Source of the DNA: an uncultured Chloroflexia bacterium
Lineage (GTDB): Bacteria > Chloroflexota > Anaerolineae > Aggregatilineales > UBA3940
NCBI GenBank assembly: GCA_963787375.1
Contig: CAWBCR010000011.1
Location: forward strand, 42,847 to 106,846
Direction of reading: 5' to 3'
DNA length: 64,000 bases
The position numbers and the translations under genes were made by a program. Below are positions 20,479 to 26,710 of this stretch, piece by piece. The notes beneath the pieces were generated by a model that searched no databases, had not been told where the DNA came from, and was given only the letters and a program-made list of their open reading frames with translations. Positions within the stretch are counted from its first letter, which is position 1, and the number at the start of each line of letters is the position of its first letter.

Positions 20479-22184
20479 TGCTTAGTCGCATGGGCCGCCG
20501 CAGGCTGCCCGGCGGCGTGGGCCAACAGCGGCAGGCGAACCGGCGCGTCTGGCGCAGGCGGCACGCGGCTCATCGCGTACTCGGCCAGCGCGGTGATCGT
20601 CAGGCTGGGGTTGATGCCGGGATTGGCCGGCACAATCGAGCCGTCGACCACATACAGGCCGGGATAGTTGTGCACCTCGCAATTCAGGTCGACGACGCCC
20701 TCGTCCGCCGTGCGGCCAAACGTCACACCACCCAGGATGTGCGCCGTCGTCGGGATGTTGAGCAGGCTCTCGTTGAAGGCCCCCTGCGGTACGCCATTGG
20801 CCCGGGCGGCAAAGGCGCGGGTCACCCGGTGGCCAATGGGGATCTCAGCCTGGATGGGCTTCTTGTCGTCGCGCGTCGAGACCAGCCCGCGCCGTAACAA
20901 GGTCAGCAGGCTGCGGCCCGGGCGCAAGTGCATCAGCGTGTCCTCAGTCTGCATTACCAGCAGAATGGTGGTGCGCTCCGCCCAGCGCGCGAAGAACTTG
21001 GCGTGCAGGAAATCGGCGGGATGGCGCAGCGCGGCTCCCAGCACCTTGAGCACACGGACCAGCGCGCCGCTGCTACCGGCGTCGATCATCGGCGCGGCCA
21101 GCGTGCGCATGAACGACGACCCGGCAGGGTAGCGCACCGGCTCGATGGCCGTCACATCGTCGGCCTGAAACACCGACGTGATGGCGATTCCCTGTGAATA
21201 GTCGATGTCACGGCTGCGCGACGTCGCGCCGATCAGCGCCTCGTTATTGGTGCGCACCTCGTCGCCCAGGCGCGGGGAAATATTGGGCAGCGAACGGGTC
21301 TCGTCGCGGCAGTGGAACAGCAGGCGCAGCGTGCCCAGCACTCCTGCCGACACTACCACGCTGCGGGTGCGGAGCGTGCGCATGGGGTTGGACAACAGCG
21401 CCGTCGCGCTGCGGTAGACGACTTCGTAACGCGCGCCATCGGGCTGGCCTTCGGGCAGGGGGCGGATATCCTGCACATCGGCCTCGGCACGAATTTCCGC
21501 ACCCCATTTTTCAGCGAAGTACAGGTAGTTCTTGACGAGCGTGTTCTTGGCGTTATAGCGGCAGCCGACCATACAGCCACCGCACTGCGTGCAGCCCGCG
21601 CGGTCGGGGCCTGCGCCGCCAAAGAAGGGGTCGGGGATCGTCTCACCCTCGTGGCCCGGCTCGCCGAAGAAGACCGACACGTCGGCGGCACGAAACGTGC
21701 TGCCCATGCCCATCTCGCCCGCGACCTCGCGCAGCGTGCCGTCGGCGGGCCACAGGCGCGGGTTGGTCACCACGCCCAGCATGCGGCGGGCGGTCTCGTA
21801 GTGAGGCCGCAGGACGGCCCTCCAGTCGGCCAGCGCGCTCCAGCCCGGCGCGTCGAACAGCGCGTCCTCAGGCTCCATGAGAACGTTGGCGTACACCAGG
21901 CTGCCGCCGCCGACCCCGCTGCCGTGCAGCACCAGCACCCCGTTGAGCAGCGTAAGCTGCTGGATGCCAAAGCAGCGCAGCACGGGCAGCCACAGGTATT
22001 TGAAGATGTTCCAGTTGGTTTTGGCGAAGTCGTCGTCGTGCAGGCGCTTGCCGCGCTCCAGCACGGTGACGCGGTAGCCCTTTTCGGCGAGGCGCATCGC
22101 CGTGACGCTGCCGCCAAACCCGGAGCCGATCACCACGTAATCACACGCGGCGTTGGCCTGCTGCTCACGCTGGTCTGCTGTCAT
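20475..22184 (-). CDS. GMC oxidoreductase, cholesterol oxidase (ChoD)-like
   Basis: VIGSGFGGSV, GVGGGSLVYAN, CxxCGGCMVGC..NAKNTL, TAHILGG, NPSLTITALAE. Confidence 0.88.
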   Translation of the reverse strand: MTADQREQQANAACDYVVIGSGFGGSVTAMRLAEKGYRVTVLERGKRLHDDDFAKTNWNIFKYLWLPVLRCFGIQQLTLLNGVLVLHGSGVGGGSLVYANVLMEPEDALFDAPGWSALADWRAVLRPHYETARRMLGVVTNPRLWPADGTLREVAGEMGMGSTFRAADVSVFFGEPGHEGETIPDPFFGGAGPDRAGCTQCGGCMVGCRYNAKNTLVKNYLYFAEKWGAEIRAEADVQDIRPLPEGQPDGARYEVVYRSATALLSNPMRTLRTRSVVVSAGVLGTLRLLFHCRDETRSLPNISPRLGDEVRTNNEALIGATSRSRDIDYSQGIAITSVFQADDVTAIEPVRYPAGSSFMRTLAAPMIDAGSSGALVRVLKVLGAALRHPADFLHAKFFARWAERTTILLVMQTEDTLMHLRPGRSLLTLLRRGLVSTRDDKKPIQAEIPIGHRVTRAFAARANGVPQGAFNESLLNIPTTAHILGGVTFGRTADEGVVDLNCEVHNYPGLYVVDGSIVPANPGINPSLTITALAEYAMSRVPPAPDAPVRLPLLAHAAGQPAAAHATKH

Positions 22185-22360: not shown

Positions 22361-22388
22361 TTGACGTATCGAGGCAACGTGCTATAAT
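22361..22388 (+). promoter_or_regulatory. sigma70 promoter of the cysteine-synthesis operon
   Basis: TTGACG-16 bp-TATAAT. Confidence 0.75.
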
Positions 22389-22422
22389 CATTTTGACGAA
22401 AGTGATATAGTTTATCTGTTGG

Positions 22423-22497
22423 ATGATATTTGTGATGATACCTTACACCTGCACATGTCTTGAGCGGGGGCGCTGTTACCCTCGCACGAGGTGCTGA
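22423..22497 (+). CDS. Cys-rich leader peptide MIFVMIPYTCTCLERGRCYPRTRC (alternative starts 22432/22435)
   Basis: Four Cys codons in 24, between the promoter and cysM, overlapping the antiterminator arm. Confidence 0.75.
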   Translation: MIFVMIPYTCTCLERGRCYPRTRC

Positions 22498-22596
22498 CCG
22501 AACCACACCCGTCGCTAGTTGACCTCCGAGGGCAACACCGTCTCCGCCATTGCAGAACCCTGTTCTGCGGCCCGGCGAAGTGAGTGTGCCCTTTTT
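22464..22596 (+). promoter_or_regulatory. Transcription attenuator (antiterminator versus terminator)
   Basis: 22464-22484 pairs with 22527-22547 (19 of 21 positions, counting G-U). Alternatively GGGCAACAC (22530-38) pairs with GTGTGCCC (22584-91), followed by TTTTT. Confidence 0.7.
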
Positions 22597-22730
22597 GCTG
22601 CCCCTTTGCTGTGCCGCACGTGAGCCTTAAGCACGCCAATCTGCAAAACAGGCCCGTGATAAAGCACCCGGCCAACCCACACGCCACAAGCGCGCTGCCG
22701 GACATGCTCACGGGATAGCAAGGGAACCTG

Positions 22731-23714
22731 ATGACCAACCTGACCAACTCTCTCACCCGCGCGCACCCGGCCCTTGCCAACTCCGCGCCGGGCATCACCT
22801 ACCGACCGGGCAGCGCCGTCGACACGCTGGTCGGCAACACGCCGCTGCTGGCGTTCCGCCGCGTGACAGCAGGCCTGTCGCCGCGTGTCAGGCTGCTGGC
22901 TAAAGCCGAATGGGCCAACCCTGGCGGCTCGGTGAAAGATCGCCCCGCGCTGAACATCATCCGGCAGGCCGAGCGGCGCGGCGACCTGCGGCCCGGCATG
23001 ACGCTGCTCGACAGCACGTCGGGCAACATGGGCATCGCCTACGCGATGTTGTGCCGGGCGCTGGGCTACGCCGTGAAGCTGGTCGTGCCGGCCAACGCCA
23101 GCCCGGAGCGGCTGGCAACGCTGCGTGCGTATGGCGTCGACCTGACGCTGAGCGACCCCGCCGAGGGCACTGACGGCGCGATCCGGCTGGTGCACGATCT
23201 TTACGCAGCCGAGCCGGGTCGCTATTTCTTCGCCGATCAGTACAATAACCCGGACAACTGGCAGGCACACTATTTCAGCACCGGCGTCGAGATCTGGGAA
23301 CAGACCGGCGGGCAGGTGACGCATTTCGTGGCCGGGATCGGCACCAGCGGGACGCTGATGGGGGTCGGGCGGCGTCTGAAGGCCTATGATCCGTCGGTTC
23401 GACTGCTGGCCGTACAGCCTGACGCGGCGTTCAACGGCCTGGAAGGGCTGAAATACATGCCAACGGCCATCGTGCCCGGCATCTACGACGCCTCGCTGCC
23501 CGACGAGATCGTGCCGGTGCAAACCGAGGACGCCTACGCCATGTGCCGCCGGCTGGCCCGCGAAGAAGGCGTGCTGGTAGGCGTCTCGGCGGGGGCGGCG
23601 ATGGTCGCCGCGCTGGCGCTGGCCAAATCGCTCGACGAGGGCGTGGTCGTCACGCTGCTGCCGGATGGCGCGTCGAAGTACCTGAGCGAACCATTCTGGA
23701 CCGAGGGAGACTGA
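22731..23714 (+). CDS. cysM: PLP-dependent cysteine synthase (CysM-type)
   Basis: VGNTPL, NPGGSVKDR, TSGNMG, GIGTSGT, EGLK; operon context with mec, cysO and moeZ. Confidence 0.88.
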   Translation: MTNLTNSLTRAHPALANSAPGITYRPGSAVDTLVGNTPLLAFRRVTAGLSPRVRLLAKAEWANPGGSVKDRPALNIIRQAERRGDLRPGMTLLDSTSGNMGIAYAMLCRALGYAVKLVVPANASPERLATLRAYGVDLTLSDPAEGTDGAIRLVHDLYAAEPGRYFFADQYNNPDNWQAHYFSTGVEIWEQTGGQVTHFVAGIGTSGTLMGVGRRLKAYDPSVRLLAVQPDAAFNGLEGLKYMPTAIVPGIYDASLPDEIVPVQTEDAYAMCRRLAREEGVLVGVSAGAAMVAALALAKSLDEGVVVTLLPDGASKYLSEPFWTEGD

Positions 23715-23720
23715 ACGCCG

Positions 23721-24167
23721 ATGAGCATTGTCCTGATCGCACCTGAGCACCTGCAAGCCATCGAGGCGCACGGCATGGCGACCTATCCCAATGAAGGGGC
23801 AGGCTTCATGCTGGGGCGTGTCGACGGCGACACGTGGCTCATCGCGGCGCTGCTGCCCATCGACAACCGGCGCGAGCTCGAAGCACAGCACAACCGCTTC
23901 GAGCTAAGCCCAAGGGACTTCATGCAGGCCGAGGCCGAGGCGGACCGGCGCGGGCTGGACCTGATCGGCGTGTTTCACTCGCATCCCGATCACCCAGCAG
24001 AGCCGAGCGCGTTTGACCGCGACCACGCACTGCCCAACTTCAGCTATCTGATCACGTCGGTGCAGAAAGGGCAGGCGCAGGTCACCCGCGCCTGGCGGCT
24101 CAATCCGGACCGTTCTGCATTCGACGAAGACACACTGGAAATGACCGAGCACACAGGAGAAGCGTAA
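23721..24167 (+). CDS. mec: JAB/M67 metallopeptidase (Mec-like CysO-Cys peptidase)
   Basis: YPNE, FHSHPDHPAEPSAFD (JAMM motif). Confidence 0.88.
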   Translation: MSIVLIAPEHLQAIEAHGMATYPNEGAGFMLGRVDGDTWLIAALLPIDNRRELEAQHNRFELSPRDFMQAEAEADRRGLDLIGVFHSHPDHPAEPSAFDRDHALPNFSYLITSVQKGQAQVTRAWRLNPDRSAFDEDTLEMTEHTGEA

Positions 24168-24170
24168 GCA

Positions 24171-24905
24171 ATGGCAAGTATCCGGATACCTACCCCGCTG
24201 CGGGCCTACACCGGCGGCAGCGACACGATAGACGTCAGGGGCGACACGGTCGGGCAGGCGCTCGACGACCTGGTACGGCAGCACCCCGACCTCAGGCAGC
24301 ACCTGTTCAAGGACAGCACATTGCGCAGCTTCGTCAACATCTACGTGGGCGAGGACGACATCCGCTACCTAGACGGCGTCGATACGGCCATCACGCCGGA
24401 AACGCGGCTGTTGCTGGTACCATCGGTGGCGGGCGGCTCGCAGGAGGGGCTGCGCCAGGTGGACCATTCGGCGCTGCGCACCAACCAGGCATTCATCATC
24501 GGCTTTCTGCTGGCGGCCTTCGTGGTGAACAGCGCGGCGCTGGTCGCGTTCGTCGCCGCCGTGATGCTGGTCGGGACACTTTGGCCCGCGCTGGGGCTGT
24601 TCAAGCGCATCTACCGCCACGTGCTGAGGCCGTTGGGGATCGTGCGGCCCGACGTGATCCGCGACAATCCGGAGCCGCACCGCTTCGCACAGGGGCTGGG
24701 CGGGACGTTCCTGGTGGCGGGGCTGGCGGCGCTGCTGGCCGGCGTGCCGGTAGCAGGCTGGGCACTGGTGTGGGTCGTGATCGGGCTGGCGGCGCTCAAC
24801 CTGTTCGCCGGGTTCTGCGCGGGATGCTTCGTCTACTACCAGCTTAACCGGCTGGGCGTACCCGGCTTTGGCGTGAGCCGTATTGAGCGAGGTGAGCGTC
24901 TGTGA
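24171..24905 (+). CDS. MoaD/CysO-like sulfur carrier fused to a DUF4395 membrane domain
   Basis: IRIPTPLRAYTGG..FVNIYVG.DDIRYL..VPSVAGG continues in frame into VDHSALRTNQ..PHRFAQG..FCAGC. Confidence 0.85.
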   Translation: MASIRIPTPLRAYTGGSDTIDVRGDTVGQALDDLVRQHPDLRQHLFKDSTLRSFVNIYVGEDDIRYLDGVDTAITPETRLLLVPSVAGGSQEGLRQVDHSALRTNQAFIIGFLLAAFVVNSAALVAFVAAVMLVGTLWPALGLFKRIYRHVLRPLGIVRPDVIRDNPEPHRFAQGLGGTFLVAGLAALLAGVPVAGWALVWVVIGLAALNLFAGFCAGCFVYYQLNRLGVPGFGVSRIERGERL

Positions 24906-25354
24906 TCGAACGCGCGCTGATCGCCGCGCTGCTGATTGGGCTGGGCTTCGGGGCGGTGGTGCTGGGCTCGCGCTGGCAGGCCCGCCGTACGGGCCGCACC
25001 CGGCGCGGCGATGCGATTCTCGACGCGCTGCGTCCTGGCGTTCCAGCGGTGGTCTATTTCTGGTCCGAGACGTGCGCGCCATGCAAGACGGTCCAGAAGC
25101 CAGCGCTGGAACAGCTCCAGGCCGAGATGGGCCCCGATGGCGTGCAGGTGTACGCCATCAACGCGGTCGAACGGCCCGACCTAGCCGACGGCTGGGGCGT
25201 GTTGAGCCTGCCGACGACGTTCATCGTCGACGCAGGCCGGACGCCGCGCCGGGTGAATCACGGCGTGGCGCGCGCCGAACAGCTCAAGCGGCAGATCGCC
25301 GCCGTAGCGAATTGCGGCGACGTGAGCGTGGGTGGCGGGGAGCCATCGGCATGA
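24902..25354 (+). CDS. Membrane-anchored thioredoxin-like protein
   Basis: N-terminal TM; YFWSETCAPC; LSLPTTFI. Confidence 0.85.
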   Translation: MIERALIAALLIGLGFGAVVLGSRWQARRTGRTRRGDAILDALRPGVPAVVYFWSETCAPCKTVQKPALEQLQAEMGPDGVQVYAINAVERPDLADGWGVLSLPTTFIVDAGRTPRRVNHGVARAEQLKRQIAAVANCGDVSVGGGEPSA

Positions 25355-25513: not shown

Positions 25514-26710
25514 ATGACAGTCTCTCAACACATCGCCCCGGAGGCAATCAACCTCTCACATGACGAAATCAAGCGCTACAGCCGGCACCTGATCATGCCC
25601 GAAGTGGGCATGGCCGGGCAGCGCAAGCTAAAGGCGGCCAGCGTGCTGCTGATCGGCGCGGGCGGGCTGGGCTCGCCGCTGGCGATGTACCTGGCCGCGG
25701 CAGGCGTGGGGCGCATCGGGCTGGTCGACTACGACACGGTCGATGCGTCAAACCTCCAGCGGCAGGTGATCCACGGCACGAAGGACATCGGGCGGTCCAA
25801 GCTGGAAAGCGCCAAGGCACGCATCACGGACATCAACCCCTACGTGCAGGTCGACACCTACGCCGCACCGCTGACCTCCGACAACGCGCTGGAGGTGCTG
25901 GCACCGTACGACGTGATCGTCGACGGCACCGACAATTTCCCGACGCGCTACCTGGTCAACGACGCGTGCGTGATGCTGGGCAAGCCAAACGTGTATGGCA
26001 GCATCTTCCGCTTCGAGGGGCAGGCCAGCGTGTTCGACGCGACGCAGGGACCATGCTACCGCTGCCTGTTCCCCGCGCCGCCGCCGCCCGGCCTGGTGCC
26101 AAGCTGCGCCGAAGGCGGCGTGCTGGGCGTGCTGCCCGGCACAATCGGGGCCATCCAGGCGACAGAGACGATCAAGCTGATCCTGGGCACGGGCGAGACG
26201 CTGATGGGACGGCTACTGCTATACGACGCGCTGAAGATGAGCTTCGAGTTTGTGAAACTGCGCAAGAACCCGGACTGCCCGGTGTGCGGCGAGCACCCGA
26301 CGCTGACCGAGCTGATCGACTACGAGCAGTTCTGCGGGATGCCGGGCCACGACCACAGCGCCTTCCACAGCGACAACGAGGCGATAGTGCCGACCATCAG
26401 CGTTAAGGAAGTCAAGCGCAAGCTCAACTCCGGCGAAGACTTCGTGCTGCTCGACGTGCGCGAGCCGCACGAGTGGCAGATCTCAAACATCGACACACCG
26501 CTGACGGTGCACATCCCCAAGGGGCAGATCCTTGAGCAGCTCGGCAAGCTGGACACCGCCCATGAGATCGTGGTGTACTGCAAGACGGGCGGGCGCTCGG
26601 CAGACGTGGTCGCCACGCTGAAAGAGCACGGCTACACGCATCTCAAGAACATGGCGGGCGGGATCAACGCGTGGGCCACGCAGGTGGACCCGGAGCTGCC
26701 GACGTACTGA
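25514..26710 (+). CDS. moeZ: MoeB/MoeZ E1-like adenylyltransferase with C-terminal rhodanese
   Basis: RYSRH, GAGGLGSP, SNLQRQ, DGTDNFPTRYL, CYRC, LDVREPHE, YCKTGGRS. Confidence 0.92.
   Translation: MTVSQHIAPEAINLSHDEIKRYSRHLIMPEVGMAGQRKLKAASVLLIGAGGLGSPLAMYLAAAGVGRIGLVDYDTVDASNLQRQVIHGTKDIGRSKLESAKARITDINPYVQVDTYAAPLTSDNALEVLAPYDVIVDGTDNFPTRYLVNDACVMLGKPNVYGSIFRFEGQASVFDATQGPCYRCLFPAPPPPGLVPSCAEGGVLGVLPGTIGAIQATETIKLILGTGETLMGRLLLYDALKMSFEFVKLRKNPDCPVCGEHPTLTELIDYEQFCGMPGHDHSAFHSDNEAIVPTISVKEVKRKLNSGEDFVLLDVREPHEWQISNIDTPLTVHIPKGQILEQLGKLDTAHEIVVYCKTGGRSADVVATLKEHGYTHLKNMAGGINAWATQVDPELPTY

Follow-up and report, generated by a model that had tools for sequence, protein, structure and literature searches.

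A putative cysteine leader-peptide attenuator ahead of a predicted cysteine operon in Anaerolineae

We describe here a leader RNA that probably acts (we would put the odds at roughly 85%) as a ribosome-coupled transcription attenuator sensing charged tRNA-Cys and controlling a predicted cysteine operon. The leader was analysed within a 64,000-nucleotide stretch of genomic DNA, hereafter the window, from an uncultured bacterium whose closest named relatives are Anaerolineae, and sits between a divergent cholesterol-oxidase-like gene (start at 22184, minus strand) and a cysteine synthase gene (22731). It combines a short upstream open reading frame (uORF), carrying two conserved Cys codons (Cys1 and Cys2), with four pairing segments whose alternative helices would be selected by the position of the translating ribosome (Table 1).

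Anatomy of the leader and the genes behind it

The sigma70 promoter proposed in an earlier note on this DNA lies where that note placed it, matching 11 of 12 consensus positions with 0.2 equally good sites expected in shuffled sequence, and would start transcription near 22394-96. A TTGA...TA(T/C)A(A/C)T pair occupies the same place in 13 of the 15 cysM leaders of the window's family, with a partial pair in L019 and none listed for L010. The uORF that follows translates as previously described, with four Cys codons in its 24-codon form, and GGA at 22421-23 is a weak candidate for its ribosome-binding site. Its length is doubtful, however, since the nearest ATG in relatives mostly lies 3-6 codons before Cys1, which makes a start at 22432 or 22435 more probable than one at 22423, and of the four Cys codons the third and fourth (22474 and 22492) are not conserved across the family, whereas Cys1 and Cys2 are.

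Downstream of the Cys codons, the near-perfect complementarity noted earlier between 22464-84 and 22527-47 holds at 19 of 21 positions, and the alternative hairpin with 22530-38 as its 5' arm is recovered at the foot of a bulged hairpin spanning 66 nt (22528-22593; -34.5 kcal/mol), in which GGGCAACAC at 22530-38 pairs with GTGTGCCC at 22584-91 immediately ahead of T5 at 22592-96. Antiterminator and terminator do exclude each other, as had been suggested, but the three-segment logic then put forward was incomplete: the leader has four segments, and a conserved 1:2 hairpin (22458-22491, -17.1 kcal/mol) had been overlooked. A simple terminator scan did not call the window's terminator, which is long and bulged and ends in a U-tract of 5 U only, and the stability of the whole 341-nt leader is not unusual (z -1.3).

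The genes that follow are arranged as cysM-mec-cysO::DUF4395-trx-moeZ, an operon predicted to make cysteine; gene functions are family matches, and the pathway is drawn by analogy to the mycobacterial CysM/CysO/MoeZ cysteine route, which the operon resembles in the available part of its description (PMC3227635). A true cysE, hisG and the rhodanese query were not found with the queries used in the organism's own, 83%-complete genome. The CysO/ThiS carrier is joined after its Gly-Gly to DUF4395, a fusion found in 5 of the 38 loci holding both, the two being separate in the other 33; the JAB peptidase next door would presumably be needed to release the Gly-Gly end of the fused carrier.

Table 1. 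Features of the leader and downstream genes (window coordinates)
Feature	Position	Strand	Remarks
Sigma70-type promoter	22361..22388	+	-35 TTGACG at 22361-66, 16-nt spacer, extended -10 TGcTATAAT ending at 22388
Leader uORF, longest form 24 codons	22423..22497	+	likely start GTG 22432 or ATG 22435
Control codons TGC-ACA-TGT (Cys1, Cys2)	22450..22458	+	Cys2 at 22456-58, likely sensor
Segment 1, core GCGGGGG 22464-70	22458..22470	+	5' arm of 1:2; alternative partner segment 3b
Segment 2, core CCCTCGC 22479-85	22471..22491	+	3' arm of 1:2, or 5' arm of 2:3 antiterminator
Segment 3	22527..22538	+	pairs with segment 2 (antiterminator) or segment 4 (terminator)
Segment 3b	22539..22549	+	lengthens antiterminator by pairing with segment 1
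Inner hairpin atop terminator	22550..22570	+	fits either fold
Segment 4 and U-tract, predicted intrinsic terminator	22584..22596	+	predicted 3' end at about 22596-22600
Cysteine synthase, CysM/CysK family	22731..23714	+	best model TIGR01138, 362.6 bits, cut-off of 394.2 not reached
JAB-domain peptidase (Mec-like)	23721..24167	+	family match
ThiS/CysO-like sulfur carrier fused to DUF4395	24171..24905	+	family match
Thioredoxin-like protein	24902..25354	+	family match, below cut-off
MoeZ/MoeB-like adenylyltransferase-sulfurtransferase	25514..26710	+	family match

Conservation, codons and spread of the uORF

The leader exceeds what chance would produce, since it is conserved. Searched by blastn, its non-coding sequence matched 6 of 23 genomes of the same family and none of the 37 that represent the order's other families; all 6 matches lie ahead of a cysM orthologue and contain a C-x-C uORF, and the near-palindromic long helix (2:3 continued by pairing of segments 1 and 3b) places 3 of them on the opposite strand. 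Pooling 17 family loci with 80 from a genome collection, and removing 10 duplicates, gave 87 non-redundant cysM loci, 65 of which carry the uORF leader motif, in keeping with the earlier expectation that orthologous leaders would share a Cys uORF; the invariance of the two Cys codons and of GCGR among them is not evidence, since the search motif fixed these positions. As for the 22 motif-less loci, 17 have a label from outside Chloroflexota or no label, 3 are truncated at a contig end (with the 3' half of the leader kept in two of them), one has cysM inside an operon and one is a Chloroflexi record without the leader. Among the 65, L084 is labelled Sulfomarinibacteraceae (Acidobacteriota) and matches Chloroflexota L067 almost exactly in its leader and cysM start, suggesting either a misbinned contig or a recent transfer.

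Together with 18 leaders from model searches, these 65 form a set of 83 in which the uORF bears the marks of a translated frame. A stop-free, in-frame ATG lies at most 16 codons before C-x-C in 78 of the 83 leaders, against 4 and 3 of 83 in the other two frames (59 against 4 and 2 after de-replication to 63 leaders), and an SD-like core precedes 53 of the 78 starts. A stop stands exactly eight codons (+24 nt) after Cys1 in 61 of 83 (TAG 28, TAA 25, TGA 8), and both the frame-specific ATG and the use of all three stop codons read as coding signatures. This fixed stop is mostly lost in the window's family, where 1 of 15 cysM leaders retains it and the stop falls at +36 to +60 in the rest; in the window its position is occupied by the third Cys codon. 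Three leaders have no in-frame ATG near the Cys codons, with GTG in L011 and L012 and an in-frame stop three codons upstream of the Cys codons in L024, and possibly use an alternative start or are broken.

Codon choice within the pair is uneven. Cys1 is TGC in 74 leaders and TGT in 9, Cys2 is TGT in 83 of 83, and the genome-wide share of TGT among Cys codons is 20%; UGU likewise stands at Cys2 in 17 of 17 leader-type matches to a pattern in which UGC was allowed. A single tRNA-Cys(GCA) was found in the organism's own genome. Base pairing proved insufficient as the full reason for the invariant UGU, since the third base of Cys2 is paired in 36 of 63 leaders and its change to C leaves 1:2 unaltered (0.94 versus 0.92). 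We infer that selection has probably favoured a slower, wobble-read codon at Cys2; PMC3862929 contains nothing on UGU versus UGC.

Covariance models of the leader were run on the organism's own genome, on family genomes and on class genomes, and returned 1 copy, 20 matches in 16 of 24 genomes, and at least 15 matches in at least 14 of 151 genomes, respectively, the last being a lower bound and not a distribution because 21 candidates per genome were scored and the plain pattern, run over 301 genomes of the phylum, matched 19 of 20 genomes of one Anaerolineae family. Neither the pattern (5 matches versus 4 in controls) nor the RNA model revealed paralogous leaders in the own genome, and its cysS has no leader of this kind. 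The 19 further model matches beyond the family cysM leaders all precede sulfur genes (19 of 19), a link that was not part of the search design: 8 stand before cysM (L131, L133, L134, L137-L141), 8 before a rhodanese-type sulfurtransferase (three named from the translated start alone), in most cases with sufE or a ThiS-like gene next in line, and one each before ThiS-ThiF, DUF4395 and sulfite reductase. Of 30 pattern loci fetched, 17 are leader-type, all in Anaerolineae genomes, and precede cysM, cysK-like or DUF4395-like genes (named by translated starts). Pattern matches outside the class were set aside as chance-like, judging by the frames, TGG ends and unrelated genes in the 7 inspected loci.

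Several members have variant layouts. L143 (G172; minus strand, about 1990 down to 1330) carries two complete leaders in tandem behind one promoter, MCTCRRRG... with a short terminator and then MARFSTRCICMRRGQ with a second terminator, ahead of a nitrite/sulfite reductase gene; such a double attenuator would sharpen the response. About 330 nt upstream of cysM in L056, a Blastocatellia record, a uORF with four consecutive UGU Cys codons precedes GCGAGGG and a strong terminator ending in a U-tract; this counterpart from Acidobacteriota is polycysteine and likewise relies on UGU. Finally, in L063, L065 and L066 (Caldilineales/Anaerolineae) a variant leader ends in C-S-C-I-G-R-A-stop and is apparently almost leaderless, with the ATG about 6 nt past the -10 box, another hairpin layout and a terminator farther away.

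Alternative helices and the proposed switch

Comparative analysis shows the predicted helices 1:2, 2:3 and 3:4 to be mutually exclusive, with 3:4 ending in a U-tract. Given a family alignment of 14 of the 15 leaders (L019 left out) and no hint, RNAalifold returned 1:2 and 3:4 with 8 of 24 pairs compensatory; the long helix is 90.6% paired in the same alignment, against 46-56% for slid controls, and its covariation within this family is weak (4 of 20 pairs, 142/500 shuffles). On a distant alignment of 31 of 50 leaders (the 19 left out being Thermoflexus, Caldilineales, U-tract-less members and near-duplicates), RNAalifold returned the terminator alone. With shuffles that ignore relatedness, and for structures that came from member sequences, compensatory changes are found in the distant alignment at 16 of 21 antiterminator pairs and 6 of 7 terminator pairs (0/500 shuffles each), covarying stems of the kind the earlier note envisaged, while 1:2 is 86% paired with 15 compensatory cells (0/500 shuffles) and pair-level covariation that is not significant (5 of 11, 71/500 shuffles). 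Furthermore, each of the four helices forms a stronger duplex with the leader's own partner than with one from another species, the 3:4 comparison being biased because segment 4 was chosen by best pairing; for 2:3 the energies are -18.8 and -12.5 kcal/mol, respectively (41 leaders). The terminator helix abuts a U-run in 57 of the 62 leaders scored outside Caldilineales. A scan found no U-tract in 5 of 65 leaders (L014, L019, L041, L058 and L079), nor did inspection in L142; these, like L135 and L136, have the uORF and the long helix and no clear U-tract, and are either degenerate or moved to another output. One RNA run, looked at for transcripts of the leader, contained 7% of the words and gave no coverage there, and was thus uninformative.

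We then folded the leaders with a ribosome mask of assumed footprint. Transcripts truncated ahead of segment 3 adopt 1:2 in 58 of 62 leaders. When truncation falls ahead of segment 4, a ribosome placed at Cys1 or Cys2 gives 2:3 in 40-41 of 42 leaders, and one placed at the stop does so in 2 of 42, matching the earlier proposal that stalling at the first Cys codons yields the antiterminator and onward translation the terminator. That proposal had treated the codons at 22450 and 22456 alike, and a stall at either does give 2:3, but the second is the likely sensor: when the mask extends 11 nt past the start of the A site, the 1:2 hairpin persists in 57 of 62 leaders stalled at Cys1 and in 1 of 62 stalled at Cys2, so that only the Cys2 stall melts it. 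This split hinges on footprint size, as at +7 the 1:2 hairpin survives a Cys2 stall in 39 of 62 leaders and at +14 it is already lost to a Cys1 stall in 34 of 62. Stalls at the third or fourth Cys codon of the window would favour termination. At full-length equilibrium, a ribosome at the stop gives the terminator in 39-40 of 42 leaders, and the terminator is still favoured under a Cys stall in 23-34 of 42 (in the window, P 0.98 for Cys2 at +13), which implies that the switch must be kinetic. Without a ribosome, the antiterminator is the equilibrium fold in 41 of 42 leaders.

These foldings are consistent with a model where RNA polymerase would first make segments 1 and 2, which would close as the 1:2 hairpin and possibly impose a pause. 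With cysteine plentiful, the ribosome would pass both Cys codons, cover segment 2 and stop; after its release 1:2 would re-form, leaving segment 3 free for 3:4, and transcription would end near 22596. With cysteine short, it would wait at the Cys2 UGU, wobble-read by the single tRNA-Cys(GCA), melting 1:2 and leaving segment 2 exposed, so that 2:3 would form as segment 3 emerges, ahead of segment 4 synthesis, and the polymerase would read into cysM. The order of synthesis, and not equilibrium, would set the choice; without translation, the long helix would win at equilibrium, yet 1:2 would form first. A more far-reaching version, which we regard as rather improbable, has a class-wide attenuator with a single wobble-read UGU sensor, opened only by a stall there, that may report the sulfur or Fe-S status of tRNA-Cys in addition to its charging. 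It is raised by the sulfur- and Fe-S-dependent ms2i6A37 on the E. coli tRNA that reads UGU (PMC5699536), along with the presence of miaA and miaB in the own genome, and if true would fit the use of the leader before rhodanese-sufE and sulfite-reductase genes.

The fixed stop described above, restricted residues between and after the Cys codons, and a U-tract that lies 118-185 nt after Cys1, a long wait with segment 2 unavailable, could also be accommodated if the nascent peptide, C-x-C-x-x-R-G-(R/S)-stop, were a TnaC/SpeFL-like arrest peptide that keeps the ribosome on the stop codon and thereby over segment 2; alternatively, its non-adjacent C-x-C, which resembles a metal-binding motif, could sense thiol, metal or persulfide instead of tRNA-Cys charging. 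We consider such a peptide quite unlikely, as conservation of R-G seems to act on the nucleotides (the last base of codon 4 is G, partly fixed by the search motif, and the codon encodes R, G, K, E or W), the bases of the R-G codons pair with compensatory partners, the window's family has largely abandoned the fixed stop, and hairpin 1:2 accounts for segment 2 protection without arrest.

Relation to known regulators and meaning of the family

Attenuation by charged tRNA-Cys would make the leader work like trpL and hisL, and four features of classical attenuators are seen in its sequence: a conserved short uORF with codons for the amino acid of the operon, a position between promoter and predicted biosynthetic operon, an exclusive antiterminator/terminator pair with U-tract and covariation (that of the antiterminator being weak in the window's own family), and a 1:2 protector or pause hairpin, pausing itself being a prediction. 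The matching geometry, in which segment 2 is freed by a stalled ribosome and covered by a finishing one, is seen under the assumed footprint in transcripts ending ahead of segment 4, and not cleanly at full-length equilibrium. The trp-type 1:2/2:3/3:4 architecture is shared with E. coli trpL, hisL and pheL and mycobacterial ilvB1, whereas the Anaerolineae leader would sense cysteine through two control codons that are not adjacent and include an invariant UGU, adds pairing of segments 3b and 1 for a 20-pair antiterminator, and has a long terminator with a nested hairpin. As in uORFC-8-2 of Rhodobacterales cysS, for which ribosome-mediated attenuation was proposed, a predicted Cys-codon uORF is coupled to an intrinsic terminator; judged by the accessible part of its published description (PMC8632094), uORFC-8-2 belongs to Alphaproteobacteria and precedes cysS with tandem Cys codons at 14-15 and UGC dominant, whereas the Anaerolineae leader, which has neither the tandem codons nor a place upstream of cysS, features C-x-C with UGU before biosynthetic genes. 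NCBIfam models matched none of 3 leader peptides of 23-34 aa.

T-box RNAs (RF00230) likewise read tRNA charging through a terminator/antiterminator choice, but the T-box core GGTGGNACC occurs in 0 of 83 leaders and no stem I match is seen, a conserved, translated-looking uORF being found instead. Rfam at its gathering score gave no match to the leader in the window or to 11 homologous loci, and none to the leader at E 10. These results, together with the coding signatures and with simple alternative helices with variable loops that explain the conserved bases, make it highly improbable that the uORF is incidental to a ligand- or protein-binding RNA switch (a riboswitch or T-box-like element), as could be suspected from the strong nucleotide conservation (GCGRGG; invariant UGU) and from T-box-like trpE control in the same organism. 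There, a T-box-like leader with a terminator lies before trpE (L146:1076-1351, G000 contig C31; 79.1 bits, E 1e-17); its score below the gathering score of 93 bits means that Rfam can miss RNAs of this organism at default threshold. The organism thus appears to use a T-box for trp and a leader peptide for cys.

Mycobacterial polycysteine sORFs such as Ms5788A are also Cys-codon uORFs before cysteine and sulfur genes, including the rhodanese gene cysA2; in the available parts of their descriptions they are leaderless, lack conserved terminators and hide the Shine-Dalgarno site (10.1101/834739; PMC1262725), and translational control by Cys uORFs is also described in the parts seen of PMC13096801 and PMC13236596. 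The Anaerolineae uORF, by contrast, is leadered, with two spaced Cys codons and helices that end 135 nt before cysM. A translational or Rho-dependent output, with the hairpin as a weak or constitutive terminator, would agree with the mycobacterial attenuators acting on translation (10.1101/834739, in part) and with the six leaders listed above that lack a clear U-tract, and has very little chance of being correct given a cysM start 135 nt past the U-tract, outside the switching helices, and a terminator helix that covaries and, outside Caldilineales, usually abuts a U-run. As the earlier note had supposed, our search of the literature, with most subscription journals outside its reach, found no published description of a cysteine attenuator family in Chloroflexota, and neither PMC2965389 nor PMC4833913 with its supplements contains a passage relevant to one.

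Within the literature covered, and in the parts of it available, cysteine sensing by uORFs has been shown as translational in mycobacteria and predicted for Rhodobacterales cysS. The Anaerolineae family would bring the complete trp-type architecture to cysteine, comes with over 80 aligned natural variants, and yields sharp predictions on the 3' end, on UGU versus UGC and on Cys1 versus Cys2. Its most testable additional features are the invariant UGU and the doubled leader ahead of sulfite reductase. Overall, the proposed attenuator would imply transcription-translation coupling in Anaerolineae, and the leader appears to mark a small sulfur regulon of cysM-mec-cysO-moeZ, rhodanese-sufE, DUF4395 and sulfite reductase genes, an association that points DUF4395 to cysteine/sulfur metabolism.
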